Source: a virus
Direction: 5' to 3' (one strand)
Virus record (IMG/VR): IMGVR_UViG_3300050343_000199
Coordinates: 128,819 to 192,818 of that record
Length of the DNA stretch: 64,000 nt
The notes beneath the pieces were generated by a model, which saw only the letters and a program-made list of their open reading frames with translations, was not told where the DNA came from and searched no databases. The number at the start of each line of letters is the position of its first letter. Position 1 is the first letter of the stretch. Below are positions 2,512-20,891 of this stretch, piece by piece. Both the position numbers and the translations under genes were made by a program.

Positions 2512-2537
2512 AAAAAAGAGAGGGGTTAACCCTCTCC
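2512..2537 (-). terminator. Rho-independent terminator closing the DUF4278 transcript
   Basis: GAGAGGG-ttaacc-CCTCTC hairpin plus T7 on the minus strand. Confidence 0.8.
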
Positions 2538-2551
2538 CTAAAGTAAGTTGT

Positions 2552-2719
2552 TCACTTGGTGTAAAGTTTACCACGATAACAGAATGTACCATGGGTCTCT
2601 TTGGATTCTACACAACGTGTATTATACTCAACACCACGATATGAGGTGTGAGTAATTTGTGCGTCGTGAAGTGCAGATGCTTTGTTGATCTGCTTACGAA
2701 TCAGATTAAGTGTGTTCAT
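2552..2719 (-). CDS. DUF4278-like small protein, 55 aa (not in ORF track)
   Basis: Hand translation MNTLNLIRKQINKASALHDAQITHTSYRGVEYNTRCVESKETHGTFCYRGKLYTK; two YRG motifs; SD AGGAG at 2728-2732. Confidence 0.85.
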   Translation of the reverse strand: MNTLNLIRKQINKASALHDAQITHTSYRGVEYNTRCVESKETHGTFCYRGKLYTK

Positions 2720-2751
2720 TGTAGTTACTCCTAAAGTAGTTGGAATTTAAT

Positions 2752-2935
2752 CCGTTCCTTTAGTCGTTTGCGTCCCATGGATAGCAATCGGGGGTTGATT
2801 CCTTCATAACTTCAATCAATTCCACCTTCATTTCAGGAGGAATATTCTCATTTGTTTTCATCCGAAACATAATTGAATCGGCTTGAGCACATGAGAGTGT
2901 TGTATAGAATAATAATTCTAGCATGGGATGAACGG
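2752..2935 (-). ncRNA. Glutamine-riboswitch-like aptamer 2 (glnA/Downstream-peptide family) with a 142-nt P2 loop
   Basis: 5' half CCGTTCA-TCCCATG (2935-2922); 3' half CATGGGA-CGCAAACGACTAAAG-GAACGG (2779-2752); P1 6 bp and P2 7 bp perfectly complementary; lies directly upstream of the DUF4278-like gene. Confidence 0.75.
2760..2924 (-). CDS. 54-aa ORF nested inside aptamer 2 (not in ORF track)
   Basis: Codon-by-codon translation MLELLFYTTLSCAQADSIMFRMKTNENIPPEMKVELIEVMKESTPDCYPWDAND*; possible SD GGAG at 2939-2936. Confidence 0.75.
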   Translation of the reverse strand: MLELLFYTTLSCAQADSIMFRMKTNENIPPEMKVELIEVMKESTPDCYPWDAND

Positions 2936-2937
2936 CT

Positions 2938-2982
2938 CCGTTCCGCGACTTACTTGCGTCCCACCCAAGAGTGGGATGAACG
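2938..2982 (-). ncRNA. Glutamine-riboswitch-like aptamer 1
   Basis: CGTTCA-TCCCAC-TCTTGG-GTGGGA-CGCAAGTAAGTCGCG-GAACGG; P1 CGTTC/GAACG, P2 TCCCAC/GTGGGA; begins at the predicted TSS. Confidence 0.75.
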
Positions 2983-2990
2983 ATGGTATT

Positions 2991-3019
2991 AGTATACCAT
3001 ACTATGTATATGATGTCAA
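2991..3019 (-). promoter_or_regulatory. Sigma70-type promoter for the riboswitch cassette
   Basis: TTGACA (3019-3014), 17 nt, TATACT (2996-2991). Confidence 0.88.
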
Positions 3020-3021
3020 CT

Positions 3022-3035
3022 GTATCTGTTGATAC
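3022..3035. promoter_or_regulatory. NtcA-type binding site
   Basis: GTA-N8-TAC (GTATCAACAGATAC on minus), 2 nt upstream of the -35 box. Confidence 0.65.
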
Positions 3036-3038
3036 TGT

Positions 3039-3287
3039 TTACTTTTTGGGTGCTTTCCAAAGGCGAGGACTTATCCTACCTTCTGCCTGTGACATATTTT
3101 TAAAATCTGTCTTATAATTATCCCAATAGTCATCAAAAATATCTACTTGCTTTGCAGCAGTAACAATATCAAACTGAGAAATACCTGCTTGAGAATACTC
3201 AATTAAAAAAGCATTAGTAGGAAGACTTTTGTCTTGTGCTAATGATGGATCACAATTTTTATGTAAAATCGTACATCCTTTTCCCAT
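3039..3287 (-). CDS. Conserved cyanophage hypothetical protein
   Basis: ORF track 3039..3305; probable start ATG 3287 abutting the previous stop. Confidence 0.7.
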   Translation of the reverse strand: MGKGCTILHKNCDPSLAQDKSLPTNAFLIEYSQAGISQFDIVTAAKQVDIFDDYWDNYKTDFKNMSQAEGRISPRLWKAPKK

Positions 3288-3718
3288 TATGATCGTCCTC
3301 CCCATTGAATCTCTGGAAATGCTTGTTCAACACACTGCTTAGTGATCTTCCAACGCTTCCCAAGTTTTTTATCCTTTGCTAGAACCAAAACTCCTGCTTC
3401 TCCTTGACTGAGACCTTCCAGCATTTGGATAAACATAGTTTCACGTTTTGTTTTAGCAATATTAGACCCACCTTTAAAGAAGTGATGTAATAAACGTGCT
3501 TCTTTTTCTAAGATTGTATGCTCAGTTCCATCAGGAGATTCATTCTTTTTGTATGGAGGATCTCCTTCTGGAAGCAATGAGATAATACTCTCATCAAAAT
3601 TAATAATCAAAAGAGATCGCAACGGTTGTGTGTTGTATTCTCTAAGAAGTTTAATCTTTTCGGGTTTCGTTTTTGCGTTTGATACTTTCTGTAGTATCTC
3701 ATGCATCAAAAGTTTCAT
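3287..3718 (-). CDS. Conserved T4-like cyanophage hypothetical protein (MKLLMHEILQKVSNAKTK)
   Basis: ORF track, 143 aa; recognisable core cyanomyophage protein. Confidence 0.8.
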   Translation of the reverse strand: MKLLMHEILQKVSNAKTKPEKIKLLREYNTQPLRSLLIINFDESIISLLPEGDPPYKKNESPDGTEHTILEKEARLLHHFFKGGSNIAKTKRETMFIQMLEGLSQGEAGVLVLAKDKKLGKRWKITKQCVEQAFPEIQWGGRS

Positions 3719-7208: not shown

Positions 7209-7320
7209 TGTTTTGAAAAAAGTAAGATCATCAGGGAGATGATGGTTTTACTATTCCTCTGCGCCCTAGGCAGAGGTATGAAAGACGTGTTTATACACCC
7301 TATAGGTCTTGGTTTGAGGA
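7209..7320 (-). ncRNA. Structured psbA 5' leader (PhotoRC-II-like motif)
   Basis: Several hairpins (CTCTG/CAGAG, CATCA-tctccc-TGATG) in the psbA 5' UTR; family name recalled, needs an Rfam search. Confidence 0.6.
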
Positions 7321-7372
7321 GTGTTACGAACCGTTAAGAAATATGTTGATTCCTTAACTAACCGATGTATTT

Positions 7373-18040: not shown

Positions 18041-18112
18041 AGCGGGAGATCGGATTTGAACCGACGACATCTAACTTGGAAGGATAGCGTTCTACCACTG
18101 AACTACACCCGC
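18041..18112 (-). tRNA. tRNA-Gly(TCC)
   Basis: GCGGGTG/CTCCCGC acceptor stem, loop CT-TCC-AA, GGTTCAAATCC T arm; no encoded CCA. Confidence 0.92.
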
Positions 18113-18119
18113 AAAAAAG

Positions 18120-18340
18120 GAGGGAGGTCAATCCCTCACTAGACTCATGCACGCCACTTGTTTTATTATTTCAGATGCTAAACAAGAAAACAACCACACG
18201 GAAGGGGATTTACCACCAATATATTTTTACTGGAACATATAAACCAGGCGGCAAAATCTTCACCCGCACCAGGGCAAGTTTAGAGTCCATCCGAGACTGG
18301 ACCAGAAGACGAATCTACCCAGCTCCACCAGGGCGAGTTT
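18120..18340 (-). ncRNA. Structured intergenic RNA upstream of tRNA-Gly (possibly manA-like motif)
   Basis: About 220 nt without a long ORF; stem CTTGTTT/AAACAAG, 15-nt direct repeat, terminal GAGGGA/TCCCTC hairpin plus T run; family name tentative. Confidence 0.5.
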
Positions 18341-18723
18341 TATGAGTCATCCCGAGACTCTTTGTAATCACCAAAAGAAATTACATCTTGCCCGAAAGAA
18401 CTAGGATAATCTACAGGACCAGCAGCATGAGGAGCATCGGCAGCAGAAGAAAACGAAATGTTATCTAGGGCATCCATGTCACCACCAGGACGAATGAGAT
18501 AATCTGACGAAAGATTGAAGTTATATTCAAGTCTATCTTCTTCCCACTGCGATGTATTGTCAGTAAAACTAATAGTATTATTAATTTTATTTTTTAGATT
18601 ACGAACCGTATTAAGAAGATCAAATAGTTCAGACAGATATGAATCATCACCCTCAGCAAGAGCATTGATTAGTGCCTGACGAACAGATTCTTCTGCAGTT
18701 TCAAGATGTGATTGCATTGACAT
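18340..18723 (-). CDS. Conserved hypothetical protein
   Basis: ORF track; MSMQSHLETAEESVRQALINALAEG. Confidence 0.75.
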   Translation of the reverse strand: MSMQSHLETAEESVRQALINALAEGDDSYLSELFDLLNTVRNLKNKINNTISFTDNTSQWEEDRLEYNFNLSSDYLIRPGGDMDALDNISFSSAADAPHAAGPVDYPSSFGQDVISFGDYKESRDDS

Positions 18724-18976
18724 AAGGATTTCTCACAGAATTAAATTTACGATATGCACATACATCTGGATCAGGGTCTAACCATTTGGTGTACTCTGGA
18801 TCTTCAAGGCATGTGTCAAGTTGCATTTGGTTATCAAGATAGTACATGTCTTGATAACGTTTAGTCCATTCATTTATTTTTTGAATGCGATAGTCAGGTC
18901 TACCGTTGATCTCCAAAAGACCGCACTGGACGTAGCGGTAAGGAGACCGCTCAAGAATGACTGTCGGTTTGTTCAT
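18701..18976 (-). CDS. Conserved cyanophage hypothetical protein
   Basis: ORF track; RYQDMYYLDNQMQLDTCLEDPEYTKWLDPD. Confidence 0.8.
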   Translation of the reverse strand: MNKPTVILERSPYRYVQCGLLEINGRPDYRIQKINEWTKRYQDMYYLDNQMQLDTCLEDPEYTKWLDPDPDVCAYRKFNSVRNPYVNAITS

Positions 18977-19179
18977 GAAGCATCATTGTGTTCGTTATAA
19001 CTATTGTACCACTCATCATCATCCATTTGCGCTGCTGCTTGGTCCAGTTCTTCAGCTGGCATAGCAATGACTGCTGTGCCATCAGATTTACGAACTATAA
19101 ACTGTTCTTTTTTAGATTCAATACGATCCATGTAAGAATCAAAGTTTTTTTCAAACTCTTCTAGTGTTACTTCAATCAT
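18973..19179 (-). CDS. Phd/YefM-antitoxin-like small protein
   Basis: MIEVTLEEFEKNFDSYMDRIE...EQFIVRKSDGTAVIAMPAEE matches the N-terminal pattern of that fold. Confidence 0.55.
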   Translation of the reverse strand: MIEVTLEEFEKNFDSYMDRIESKKEQFIVRKSDGTAVIAMPAEELDQAAAQMDDDEWYNSYNEHNDAS

Positions 19180-19418
19180 ACTACACAACAAATAGATTGT
19201 TCTTGCATATACTTAATTGACTCTTGACATCCACCAAGTTTGATGCCATCAAGGACAATCTGAGGGAACGTAGAGTTGTCTCCAAACTCCTCATAAAATT
19301 CTTCATAAGAAAAATCTCGGTCTAACTCATAGACAACGTACTTTAATTCAGACAAGTCCATTACTTGTTTAATTTTAGCACAGAACTTACATCCTTTTTT
19401 AGAGTAGATAGTAAACAT
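19176..19418 (-). CDS. Glutaredoxin (second copy)
   Basis: YSKKGCKFC; TFPQIVLDGIKLGG. Confidence 0.92.
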   Translation of the reverse strand: MFTIYSKKGCKFCAKIKQVMDLSELKYVVYELDRDFSYEEFYEEFGDNSTFPQIVLDGIKLGGCQESIKYMQEQSICCVV

Positions 19419-20077
19419 TATACTACAGATAGGGTTGCCATGGTTTCATCATAATCTTTCTGAAAAAGTTCTAATCCTTTATCAGTTAGGACATGATTGT
19501 ACATCTTATCAAAAATACCTGACGGCATAGTAACAATATGAGCACCATTATAAAATGCACGGGATACTTTATACACATCACGAAGAGATGCAGCAAGAAC
19601 CTGAGTACGAACACCCTGTACCTGGTAGATACTAGTAATAGAACGTACCAATTCTAATCCAGAGATAGAATTGTCATCATATCTACCAACAAAAGGAGAC
19701 ACATAAGTTGCACCTGCTTTAGCAGCAAGAATTGCCTGAGCAGCACTGAAAATCAATGTAACATTGGTACGAATACCAACATCACTAAGAGATTTACAGA
19801 CCTGAAGACCATCTGGAGTACAAGGAAGTTTAATTGTAGCAACTTCCTTGTACTCCTGATGTAAATTAATTGCTTCACTGTACATCTCACCAACAGTACC
19901 GACAACCTCCATACTGATATCTACAATACCTAAATCTGCTAGTCCACGGTAAACATCATGTGGATCTTTACCGCTTTTTCTAATTAGAGTTGGGTTGGTA
20001 GTTACACCATCAATAAGTCCAGTCGCAAAACGACTGGCAATAGAATCTACGTCTGCTGTATCAAGAAAAATTTTCAT
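19418..20077 (-). CDS. talC: Transaldolase (TalC type)
   Basis: MKIFLDTAD, GVTTNPTLI, ATIKLP, YVSPFVGR, LAASLR. Confidence 0.96.
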   Translation of the reverse strand: MKIFLDTADVDSIASRFATGLIDGVTTNPTLIRKSGKDPHDVYRGLADLGIVDISMEVVGTVGEMYSEAINLHQEYKEVATIKLPCTPDGLQVCKSLSDVGIRTNVTLIFSAAQAILAAKAGATYVSPFVGRYDDNSISGLELVRSITSIYQVQGVRTQVLAASLRDVYKVSRAFYNGAHIVTMPSGIFDKMYNHVLTDKGLELFQKDYDETMATLSVV

Positions 20078-20103
20078 TTAATTATATTGGTGAGTGTACC
20101 AAG

Positions 20104-20188
20104 CGGAAAGGGTGGGATTTGAACCCACGGATGCTCTCACATCGTCAGTTTTCAAGACTGATGCATTCAACCGCTCTGCCACCTTTCC
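20104..20188 (-). tRNA. tRNA-Ser(TGA)
   Basis: GGAAAGG/CCTTTCC acceptor stem, TCAGT-CT-TGA-AA-ACTGA, long variable arm. Confidence 0.93.
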
Positions 20189-20381
20189 GAGATTCCAGTT
20201 TAACGAACTGTTCTTTAAGATTATAGAACAACTTGTGGTCATTTGTCAAGACATAATATCCGTCAATGTCCTTACCATCACACGTAAATCCATAACCGAT
20301 TACCTGTTCACACACATCGTCAATGGTAAAACATTTATCTGTATGAAGGTAATCGTGATAGCGTTCATCCAGATTAATCAT
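20145..20381 (-). CDS. Hypothetical protein whose 3' end runs into tRNA-Ser
   Basis: ORF track, 78 aa; start abuts the upstream stop. Confidence 0.65.
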   Translation of the reverse strand: MINLDERYHDYLHTDKCFTIDDVCEQVIGYGFTCDGKDIDGYYVLTNDHKLFYNLKEQFVKLESRKGGRAVECISLEN

Positions 20382-20629
20382 TACCGTTCCTCAAAATTAA
20401 TTTTACGGACACGTCTTTTCTTACGTGCCTCCTGGTATTCTAAATCAGAATTTGTCAGGATACCATTATATTTAACAGAACTGTTATGATTCGTTAGAAC
20501 TACTTGACTTAAATCAACAGCACCAACGTGGTCATCCACAACCCTCATTTGGTTAGGACAACCACAGAACTGAACTTTACTTGTACTCGTCAGTTCAATA
20601 TTACATAGTTTGCATCTTGCAGATAACAT
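20381..20629 (-). CDS. Small Zn-finger-like protein
   Basis: CKLC ... CGCPN. Confidence 0.75.
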   Translation of the reverse strand: MLSARCKLCNIELTSTSKVQFCGCPNQMRVVDDHVGAVDLSQVVLTNHNSSVKYNGILTNSDLEYQEARKKRRVRKINFEER

Positions 20630-20656
20630 TATTCAGCATTTAACCTCTTTAATTAA

Positions 20657-20728
20657 TGGGTGAAGAGGGACTTGAACCCCCGACCGCCTCCGTGTAAAGG
20701 AGATGCTCTACCACTGAGCTATTCACCC
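20657..20728 (-). tRNA. tRNA-Val(TAC)
   Basis: GGGTGAA/TTCACCC acceptor stem, loop TT-TAC-AC. Confidence 0.94.
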
Positions 20729-20731
20729 TAA

Positions 20732-20814
20732 TGTCGGTAAGAGGACTTGAACCTCCACGTCATAAAGACACCAGAACCTAAACCTGGCGCGTCTACCAAT
20801 TCCGCCATACCGAC
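20732..20814 (-). tRNA. tRNA-Leu(TAG)
   Basis: GTCGGTA/TACCGAC acceptor stem, CCAGG-TT-TAG-GT-TCTGG, variable arm. Confidence 0.93.
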
Positions 20815-20817
20815 AAG

Positions 20818-20891
20818 CGACTCAGATAGGATTTGAACCTATGACCGACTGCTTAGAAGGCAGTTGCTCTATCCAGCTGAGCTACTGAGTC
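20818..20891 (-). tRNA. tRNA-Arg(TCT)
   Basis: GACTCAG/CTGAGTC acceptor stem, ACTGC-CT-TCT-AA-GCAGT. Confidence 0.94.

Follow-up and report, generated by a model that had tools for sequence, protein, structure and literature searches.

Two classes of glutamine riboswitch are the closest described systems to the RNA analyzed here: glutamine-I (glnA RNA, RF01739), known from the gifB (IF17) leader of Synechocystis (Klahn et al. 2018, PMC6212724), and glutamine-II (Downstream-peptide motif, RF01704) of marine picocyanobacteria (Huang et al. 2019, PMC6698751). Tandem and triple glutamine riboswitches are also known (PMC2864571, PMC10265488). Phage glutamine riboswitches have been described and are regarded as rare (PMC5473149, PMC9964418, PMC9004378), and only two glutamine aptamers have been reported in cyanophages (PMC5473149).

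An aptamer is usually regarded as a compact non-coding domain that precedes the gene under its control; in the layout described in this study, aptamer helices span one or two whole genes. The window, that is, the whole 64,000-nt stretch of DNA that was analyzed, is part of the 192,818-bp record of a T4-like cyanophage. Based on sequence comparisons, we put the probability at approximately 0.6 that positions 2986-2720 of its minus strand are the leader of a small early phage operon and form one composite glutamine riboswitch with two interlocked cores. The earlier note on this DNA had supposed that a gene nested in a riboswitch loop was undescribed, and we likewise found no publication, in the searchable literature, that describes interlocked cores or an aptamer with a gene inside it.

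A gene nested in a split aptamer

As read directly from the sequence, with coordinates re-derived by script, the 5' half of the split aptamer consists of CCGTTCA (2935-2929) and TCCCATG (2928-2922), and the 3' half consists of CATGGGA (2779-2773), a 15-nt junction (2772-2758), and GAACGG (2757-2752). The halves form two perfect pairings of 6 and 7 bp, and the strands of the 7-bp helix lie 142 nt apart. A 54-codon ORF (2924-2760) fills this gap; its ATG (2924-2922) lies in the 5' helix strand, and its last codons, WDAND plus the stop, are the junction sequence of the aptamer. At the corresponding position, the neighboring complete aptamer (2982-2939) carries a loop of 6 nt. These elements had all been noticed in the earlier note, which gave their coordinates, pairings, and codons correctly, and its central claim, a protein-coding gene within a helix of a glutamine-riboswitch-type aptamer, is supported by the coding signal, by covariation, and by the conserved layout described below. 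The parts of the locus are listed in Table 1.

The nested ORF is coding, as indicated by several properties of its family. Its indels among seven genera are 3 or 6 nt long, that is, multiples of three, and the median dN/dS is 0.37, at a dS of approximately 1.07, which is near saturation. The protein has two conserved Cys, and AlphaFold2 confidently predicts a helical hairpin (mean pLDDT 80). The family (PHROG 504) was found in 305 phage records; for the function of the protein, Pfam, NCBIfam, and the ESM Atlas gave unnamed clusters only. A possible RBS, GGAG, is located in the loop region of the inner hairpin, 10-11 nt before the ATG. Many relatives pair no more than the A of the ATG; the burial of the start codon is thus partial, and occlusion may be weak.

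The position of the promoter places the RNA start a few nucleotides ahead of the first aptamer strand, and the terminator at 2539-2515 ends a transcription unit of approximately 470 nt. The pattern GTA-N8-TAC (NtcA-box pattern) occurs at 3022-3035 of the minus strand, 2 nt upstream of the -35 hexamer; it is present ahead of the promoter in some related loci (L023, L027, S-P4, and S-H38), not in all. Directly upstream of the operon on the minus strand is an 88-aa PHROG 485 ORF (3305-3039), and two places upstream is the gene of a DUF6433 protein (3287-3718, minus; 166.7 bits). Elsewhere in the window, the minus strand carries a PhotoRC-II RNA (7243-7336, 71 bits), a wcaG RNA (18205-18300, 44.7 bits), and five tRNA genes within 18041-20891, which together are typical of T4-like cyanophages.

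Table 1. Features of the leader and operon, in window coordinates, in 5' to 3' order of the minus strand
Feature	Position	Strand	Basis
Sigma-70-type promoter	2991..3019	minus	Promoter scan, 11/12 matches; same position in related loci
Promoter boxes: -35 TTGACA, 17-nt spacer, -10 TATACT with TG ahead	3019-3014 (-35); 2996-2991 (-10)	minus	
Outer P1 5' strand CGTTC	2978..2982	minus	Invariant; partner 2757-2753
P2 hairpin of first core: 6-bp stem, 6-nt loop	2959..2976	minus	RF01739 alignment
Junction CGCA + AGTA (5' strand of loop-E motif)	2951..2958	minus	RF01739 consensus; invariant in alignment A2
P3 5' strand AGTCG	2946..2950	minus	Partner 2766-2762, covarying
Inner hairpin GAACG / loop GAGC / CGTTC	2930..2943	minus	100% paired
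P2' 5' strand TCCCATG, nested ATG within	2922..2928	minus	Sequence; covaries with 2779-2773
Nested ORF, 54 aa, PHROG 504, 'T4-GC 430'	2760..2924	minus	ORF list; PHROG E 6e-29
P2' 3' strand CATGGGA, within last codons of nested ORF	2773..2779	minus	Sequence, covariation
Second-core junction CGCAAA	2767..2772	minus	Conserved in alignment A2
P3 3' strand CGACT	2762..2766	minus	Last base is first base of stop TAA (2762-2760)
Loop-E region 3' strand AAAG	2758..2761	minus	GAAG in most relatives and RF01739 consensus
Outer P1 3' strand GAACG	2753..2757	minus	Invariant
Alternative hairpin: CTAAAG 2763-2758 with CTTTAG 2736-2731	2731..2763	minus	Covariation; minimum-free-energy fold
Downstream gene, 55 aa, DUF4278-like, two YRG motifs, PHROG 545, 'T4-GC 937'	2552..2719	minus	
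Intrinsic terminator, 10-bp stem then T run	2515..2539	minus	Terminator scan

The layout recurs among cyanophages

We gathered 200 metagenomic viral loci and parsed their units by script, which gave 213 distinct split units. The layout is found in cyanophages of at least 15 genera, and both half-aptamers, including their non-coding bases, do not vary among 7 phage genera. In 206 of the 213 units, an ORF occupies the same register, with the ATG 4-5 nt past the CGTTCA motif of the P1 strand. In these 206 units, the stop codon falls in the junction (173), in the 3' helix strand (29), or elsewhere (4). Three apparent CGTTGA first strands proved to be parsing artefacts inside P2 loops. When the genomes of 185,579 species were scanned, the split-unit pattern occurred in 4 contigs, all in metagenome bins, which we judge to be phage-like from contig size and titles. 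The search pattern is narrow, and hosts may nonetheless carry the unit.

By blastp, the enclosed proteins fall into four clusters: two large families of 169 and 27 distinct proteins, an unrelated family of 2, and a singleton that resembles gp196. The same position is held by three ORF families, of which two are distantly related and one is unrelated. Together with the unsplit homologue and the compensatory helix changes described below, this indicates that selection acts on the arrangement. A profile comparison of families 429 and 430 gave a probability of 56% and an E of 1e-4 over the Cys-to-Cys segment, which hints at a common origin of these two families. The enclosed ORFs of L021, L089 (S-H68), L091 (S-CAM9), and L093 (S-T4) have signal-peptide-like N-termini. 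The sequences suggest that some enclosed ORFs might encode exported small Cys-pair proteins.

Tandem arrangements were compared in 112 distinct pairs, comprising 83 complete-plus-split, 28 split-plus-split, and 1 complete-plus-complete pair. In ACG-2014f, the same RNA is present with its second helix closed by a 4-nt loop and no ORF. In Syn9, S-TIM5, and P-SSM4, both aptamers are split by ORFs; the first encloses a 66-codon gene of the gp196 family, whose stop codon is inside the 3' strand of the helix. S-CAM9 and S-T4 have a compensated helix around an ORF that the deposited records leave unannotated. S-H68 and three metagenomic contigs carry a split unit without any first core, and the second core can therefore evidently persist alone. 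Furthermore, L214 (9009-9201, plus strand) and L155 (minus strand, approximately 2549-2742) each carry a glutamine-II-type aptamer that stands alone and has an unrelated 54-codon ORF enclosed by its first stem. This ORF has no Cys and no hydrophobic N-terminus, and a YRG peptide gene follows it. One of these two contigs encodes what we take, by eye, to be a T7 endonuclease I-like protein, which suggests that this contig may be from a podovirus.

The P2 loop of the first aptamer can also be enlarged. L028, L068, L049, and L117 have a conserved insertion of approximately 40 nt at this place, and different insertions of 20-25 nt are present in L003, L147, L183, and S-SSM7. This loop tolerates non-coding inserts as well as genes.

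Compensatory changes in the helix around the gene

The earlier note had looked to P1/P2 covariation in homologs as a check on its proposed pairing. The ORF-bearing P2 helix (P2') does covary, whereas the P1 helices drawn side by side show no covariation. Across the 206 units, the first five pairs of P2' are almost always formed. At position 3, the pair is C-G in 189 units, U-A in 11, and G-U in 6, with no mismatches; at position 4, it is C-G in 160, G-U in 17, U-A in 12, and A-U in 1, with 16 mismatches that are mostly A.A. In P-SSM4, the helix is compensated, with another codon in place of Trp.

Where the first aptamer is split, the stop codon is part of the 3' helix strand, and the choice of stop codon goes with the sequence of the non-coding 5' strand approximately 200 nt upstream. 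TAA occurs with TCTTA in 5 of 5 cases, and TGA occurs with TCTCA in 6 of 6. In the TAG class, the 5' strand is fully complementary in 2 of 11 cases, and most members of the class are mismatched (A.A or C.A) or bulged at position 4.

The first-core P2 is highly variable in relatives, with compensatory changes. The helix of complete aptamers occurs in 63 variants among 91 units, whereas the copy around the gene hardly varies, as would follow if codons fix its partner strand.

Similarity to both glutamine riboswitch classes

At gathering thresholds, Rfam gave nothing in the riboswitch region, and RF01739 had no match above its cut-off of 35 bits in the genome to which the window belongs. The glutamine-riboswitch-like character claimed from the letters was nevertheless visible to Rfam in part: the complete first core matched RF01739 at 29.1 bits (E 4e-4), below the cut-off, whereas the split copy was unmatched at E ≤10. 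The latter is as expected because the covariance model heavily penalizes a 142-nt insertion. The unsplit homologue of ACG-2014f reached 41.1 bits, above 35. This match is composite; it joins the 5' strand and P2 of the first core, the stem between the junctions (P3), and the last strand of the second core.

Of the features of RF01739, P1 of CGUUC/GAACG and a P2 hairpin beginning one base after P1 are both present, and a P3 flanked by the loop-E strands AGUA and GAA is present for the interlocked composite only. In the window, the 3' strand of loop E is AAA, compared with GAA in the consensus. We assigned AGUA/GAA to loop E according to the usual form of the motif and to PMC6698751.

Against RF01704 (gathering score 33 bits), only the first core of the window matched, at 25.0 bits. 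The second core of ACG-2014f (32.1 bits) and the 3' part of L214 (27.4 bits) also scored below 33. The elements of this class are nonetheless recognizable, namely a stem-loop, a CGCA junction, and a second hairpin with GGAACG in its loop for a pseudoknot with CGUUC. Here, the first stem of this type is the ORF-enclosing helix, and the second hairpin covaries.

Two cores that are probably interlocked

The earlier note had read two adjacent copies of one aptamer. Both cores are indeed present, but the covariation and the Rfam match of ACG-2014f favor an interlocked fold over independent neighbors. The interlocked model was evaluated on 83 distinct sequences and 500 shuffles. In this model, the outer P1 (2982-2978 with 2757-2753) is paired in 81 of 81 sequences (100%). 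For P3 (2950-2946 with 2766-2762), 96.6% of the cells in the 83 sequences are paired, and four of the five pairs have changed on both sides; the compensated variants each occur in a single sequence, and G-U variants occur as well. Of the 83 sequences, 79 have G-C and 4 have C-G as the outer pair of the inner hairpin. None of the 500 shuffles reached the observed values on all five measures of the interlocked structure.

The main alternative is that two independent aptamers lie side by side. The second would then fold alone, with P1 formed by 2934-2930 and 2757-2753 and P2 around the ORF; it would form a glutamine-II-like pseudoknot, and the hairpin adjacent to the RBS would be part of the aptamer and not its competitor. 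Such an arrangement would account for the lone split units without a first aptamer in one diversified lineage and for the lone glutamine-II-type split aptamer with an unrelated ORF in other contigs. It is also in line with the unsplit second aptamer of ACG-2014f, only just below the RF01704 threshold, and with the P1-equivalent strand that the glutamine-II family carries in a hairpin loop (RF01704 consensus; PMC6698751). Its constrained energy (-67.5 kcal/mol) is near that of the interlocked fold. However, each side-by-side P1 contains 4 broken cells and shows no covariation. In particular, four sequences have exchanged G-C for C-G between core 1 (3' strand) and core 2 (5' strand); the inner hairpin and the outer P1 stay intact with this swap, but the two side-by-side P1 helices each lose their innermost pair. 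Moreover, the compensatory changes of P3 join two junctions that the side-by-side model leaves unpaired, the loop-E strands are divided (AGUA in the first junction only, GAA in the second only), and the composite outscores either aptamer alone in Rfam. We therefore regard two independent aptamers as unlikely.

Collectively, the composite score of ACG-2014f, the compensation in P3, and the four-sequence swap favor, on sequence grounds, the interlocked fold over a side-by-side arrangement. P3 contains a C.A mismatch in the P-SSM2/P-SSM4-type clade (13 of the 83 sequences), where each junction could instead form its own 2-bp mini-hairpin. Based on this clade, the single-sequence P3 variants, and the lone units, both folds may be visited as alternative states. 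A partner exchange of P1 between two cores is physically plausible because the glutamine-II aptamer crystallizes as a strand-swapped dimer via the same 5-bp helix (PMC6698751, PMC7357161); this aptamer can also be assembled from two RNA pieces (PMC6698751). A circularly permuted aptamer, in which the 3' half of core 1 is combined with the 5' half of core 2, was rejected because its two P2 strands mismatch when the P2 of core 1 varies.

A downstream gene behind a competing hairpin

The gene after the leader had been called DUF4278-like. Pfam DUF4278 (PF14105) matches its product with an E of 4e-4, and two YRG motifs are present, but the score of 21.1 bits is below the cut-off of 25.3 bits. The two motifs and the riboswitch context fit the DUF4278/IF17-like family (PMC2864571 supplement, PMC6212724). 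For this peptide, there was no NCBIfam match and no PDB relative. Its PHROG 545 match has an E of 4e-35, and the family was found in 371 phage records; where genes of PHROG 504 and PHROG 545 both occur, they are approximately 200 nt apart.

The alternative hairpin overlaps the 3' strand of P3 and loop E as well as the first bases of the RBS AGGAG (2732-2728), and it holds the 3' strand of P1 in its loop. The hairpin and the sensor fold exclude each other because they share the nucleotides of P3 and loop E. The middle pair of the hairpin is A-U in 32 sequences, G-C in 30, and G-U in 15. The varying base is the middle base of the nested stop codon, and TGA and TAA therefore alternate with the partner base. 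The G/A position of the loop-E 3' strand covaries in this way with its hairpin partner. By nearest-neighbour energies, the hairpin state (-75.4 kcal/mol) is more stable than the interlocked (-68.5 kcal/mol) and side-by-side (-67.5 kcal/mol) folds. The composite fold, approximately 7 kcal/mol weaker than the hairpin state, would thus need tertiary and ligand energy, as is usual for riboswitches.

Two further observations concern this region. An insertion of approximately 40 nt is found in the loop of the hairpin before the downstream gene in L091, L092, L093, L039, L042, and L083 (syn9, S-CAM9, S-T4, and others); it has its own small, apparently covarying stem and may be an extra module. On the minus strand, the downstream gene begins with ATGAAC (2714-2719), which can pair with GTTCAT in the first aptamer strand (2976-2981). 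This pairing appears in the minimum-free-energy fold and may be due to chance because it is absent in clades whose downstream gene starts differently.

How the element might work

From these comparisons, we infer that glutamine is bound, in which direction control runs, and that translation is coupled to folding. In the composite fold, the outer P1 would join the very first strand (2982-2978) to the last (2757-2753), and the first core would keep its ordinary P2. The junctions of the two cores would pair as a shared P3, flanked by the halves of loop E, one in each junction, and the loop of P3 would house the inner hairpin (2943-2930) and P2' (2928-2922 with 2779-2773) around the 54-codon gene. 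Upon glutamine binding, this fold would take up the strand that otherwise pairs beside the RBS of the DUF4278-like gene, and the gene would be turned on. The simplest reading, by analogy with cyanobacterial riboswitches (PMC6212724, PMC6698751), is a glutamine ON switch in which the RBS is freed.

The earlier note had further proposed that ligand binding and translation of the nested ORF are mutually coupled. The composite fold would pull the start region of the nested gene into helices, which would lower its translation. Conversely, a ribosome on the nested gene would open P2' and, at the stop codon, also P3, loop E, and the outer P1. Because the ribosome must open the sensor helices, translation and sensing would exclude each other on one RNA. 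The effect of nested translation may be a reciprocal switch, a kinetic delay, or translational coupling. In addition, ribosomes that reach the end of the nested ORF would open the hairpin as well; through such coupling, they could activate the downstream gene and make a reciprocal switch less clear-cut.

Translational coupling might even be the whole of the matter. In such a scheme, the first aptamer controls the nested ORF, the ribosomes on that ORF open the hairpin, and the second half-sites sense nothing. In 173 of the 206 units (those of the +10 or +13 class), the nested stop codon does lie in the 5' strand of the hairpin, with the next start codon 41 nt further on, and GGAG is present 10-11 nt ahead of the nested ATG. 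However, the scheme leaves unexplained the frozen non-coding 5' strand before the ATG, which covaries with the 3' strand approximately 150 nt away, as well as the whole ORF-less RNA of ACG-2014f and the covariation of the junctions. We thus consider it improbable. Finally, a relic, in which a small gene landed in a hairpin loop and inactivated the aptamer, so that the conservation of the flanks is only coding or recent, might be suspected from the split element without an Rfam match and from the frequent mobility of small phage genes, but is highly improbable given that the halves are invariant while the enclosed proteins diverge to <30% identity, that the non-coding parts of both halves are conserved, that compensatory changes are present, and that both aptamers, and three ORF families of which two are distantly related, keep the same register.

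The composite riboswitch of interlocked cores accordingly remains our main reading. Its full form would be a riboswitch wrapped around genes, with strand-exchanged, helix-sharing cores, that yields the enclosed Cys-pair helical protein at low glutamine and an IF17-like peptide at high glutamine; we propose this version tentatively, with somewhat less than even confidence.

Discussion

If true, the proposed element would be the first natural case of genes within an aptamer and a new mode of joining two aptamers. With start and stop codons built into the helix strands, ribosome traffic would be an input to the sensor, and the sensor would be an input to the translation of the enclosed gene. Hundreds of cyanophage genomes carry the split unit. 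Since this layout is missed by models or scored below threshold, phage riboswitches might look rare in model-based surveys. The element offers an experimental handle on how abundant ocean viruses read the nitrogen status of the host early in infection, and it places two widespread cyanophage protein families, both of unknown function, in a regulatory context. Moreover, other 'tandem' glutamine riboswitches are worth re-examining for strand exchange and shared helices.

Compared with glutamine-I, as in the gifB leader of Synechocystis (PMC6212724), the locus has the same P1/P2 core sequences, CGCA junction, loop-E strands, and P3. The gifB RNA is likewise the 5' leader of a DUF4278-type gene, and its control is the same as that proposed here, in which glutamine frees an RBS hidden by alternative pairing (Klahn et al. 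2018, PMC6212724). In contrast, the loop of P3 is not short in the phage RNA but holds a second core and a complete gene, and the canonical elements are spread over approximately 230 nt and two 'aptamers'. The phage element is accordingly missed by searches with the standard model or scored in part below threshold.

The second core resembles glutamine-II in its stem-loop and CGCA junction, in the hairpin loop bearing a GGAACG strand, and in the YRG-motif peptide gene that follows (Huang et al. 2019, PMC6698751). It differs in that the first stem-loop encloses an ORF of approximately 150-200 nt, in its scores just under the threshold (32.1 and 27.4 versus 33 bits), and in that the core is probably interlocked with a type-I core in most phages. 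Two sensor cores per leader, which may cooperate, are likewise found in tandem and triple glnA RNAs (Weinberg et al. 2010, PMC2864571) and in tandem glycine riboswitches. However, those cores are described as complete neighbors, whereas the phage cores probably share a helix and exchange P1 strands, and one or both enclose genes. The 2010 alignment files (PMC2864571) contain such loci, including P-SSM2, with the split unit in the unaligned 3' flank.

Genes have also been placed near or within structured RNAs in other systems. The B12 and Mbox leaders of Mycobacterium tuberculosis likewise contain a small translated ORF that takes part in controlling the downstream gene (PMC11260477, PMC12810186). 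Their ORF, however, lies in the expression platform downstream of the aptamer and not inside an aptamer helix. Group I introns carry homing-endonuclease ORFs in their peripheral loops. As in the phage leader, a coding ORF is thereby set in a loop of a structured RNA, and translation and folding must be reconciled. In contrast to the element described here, these introns are self-splicing, mobile, and not ligand sensors, and the start and stop codons of their ORFs do not form part of the helix strands.
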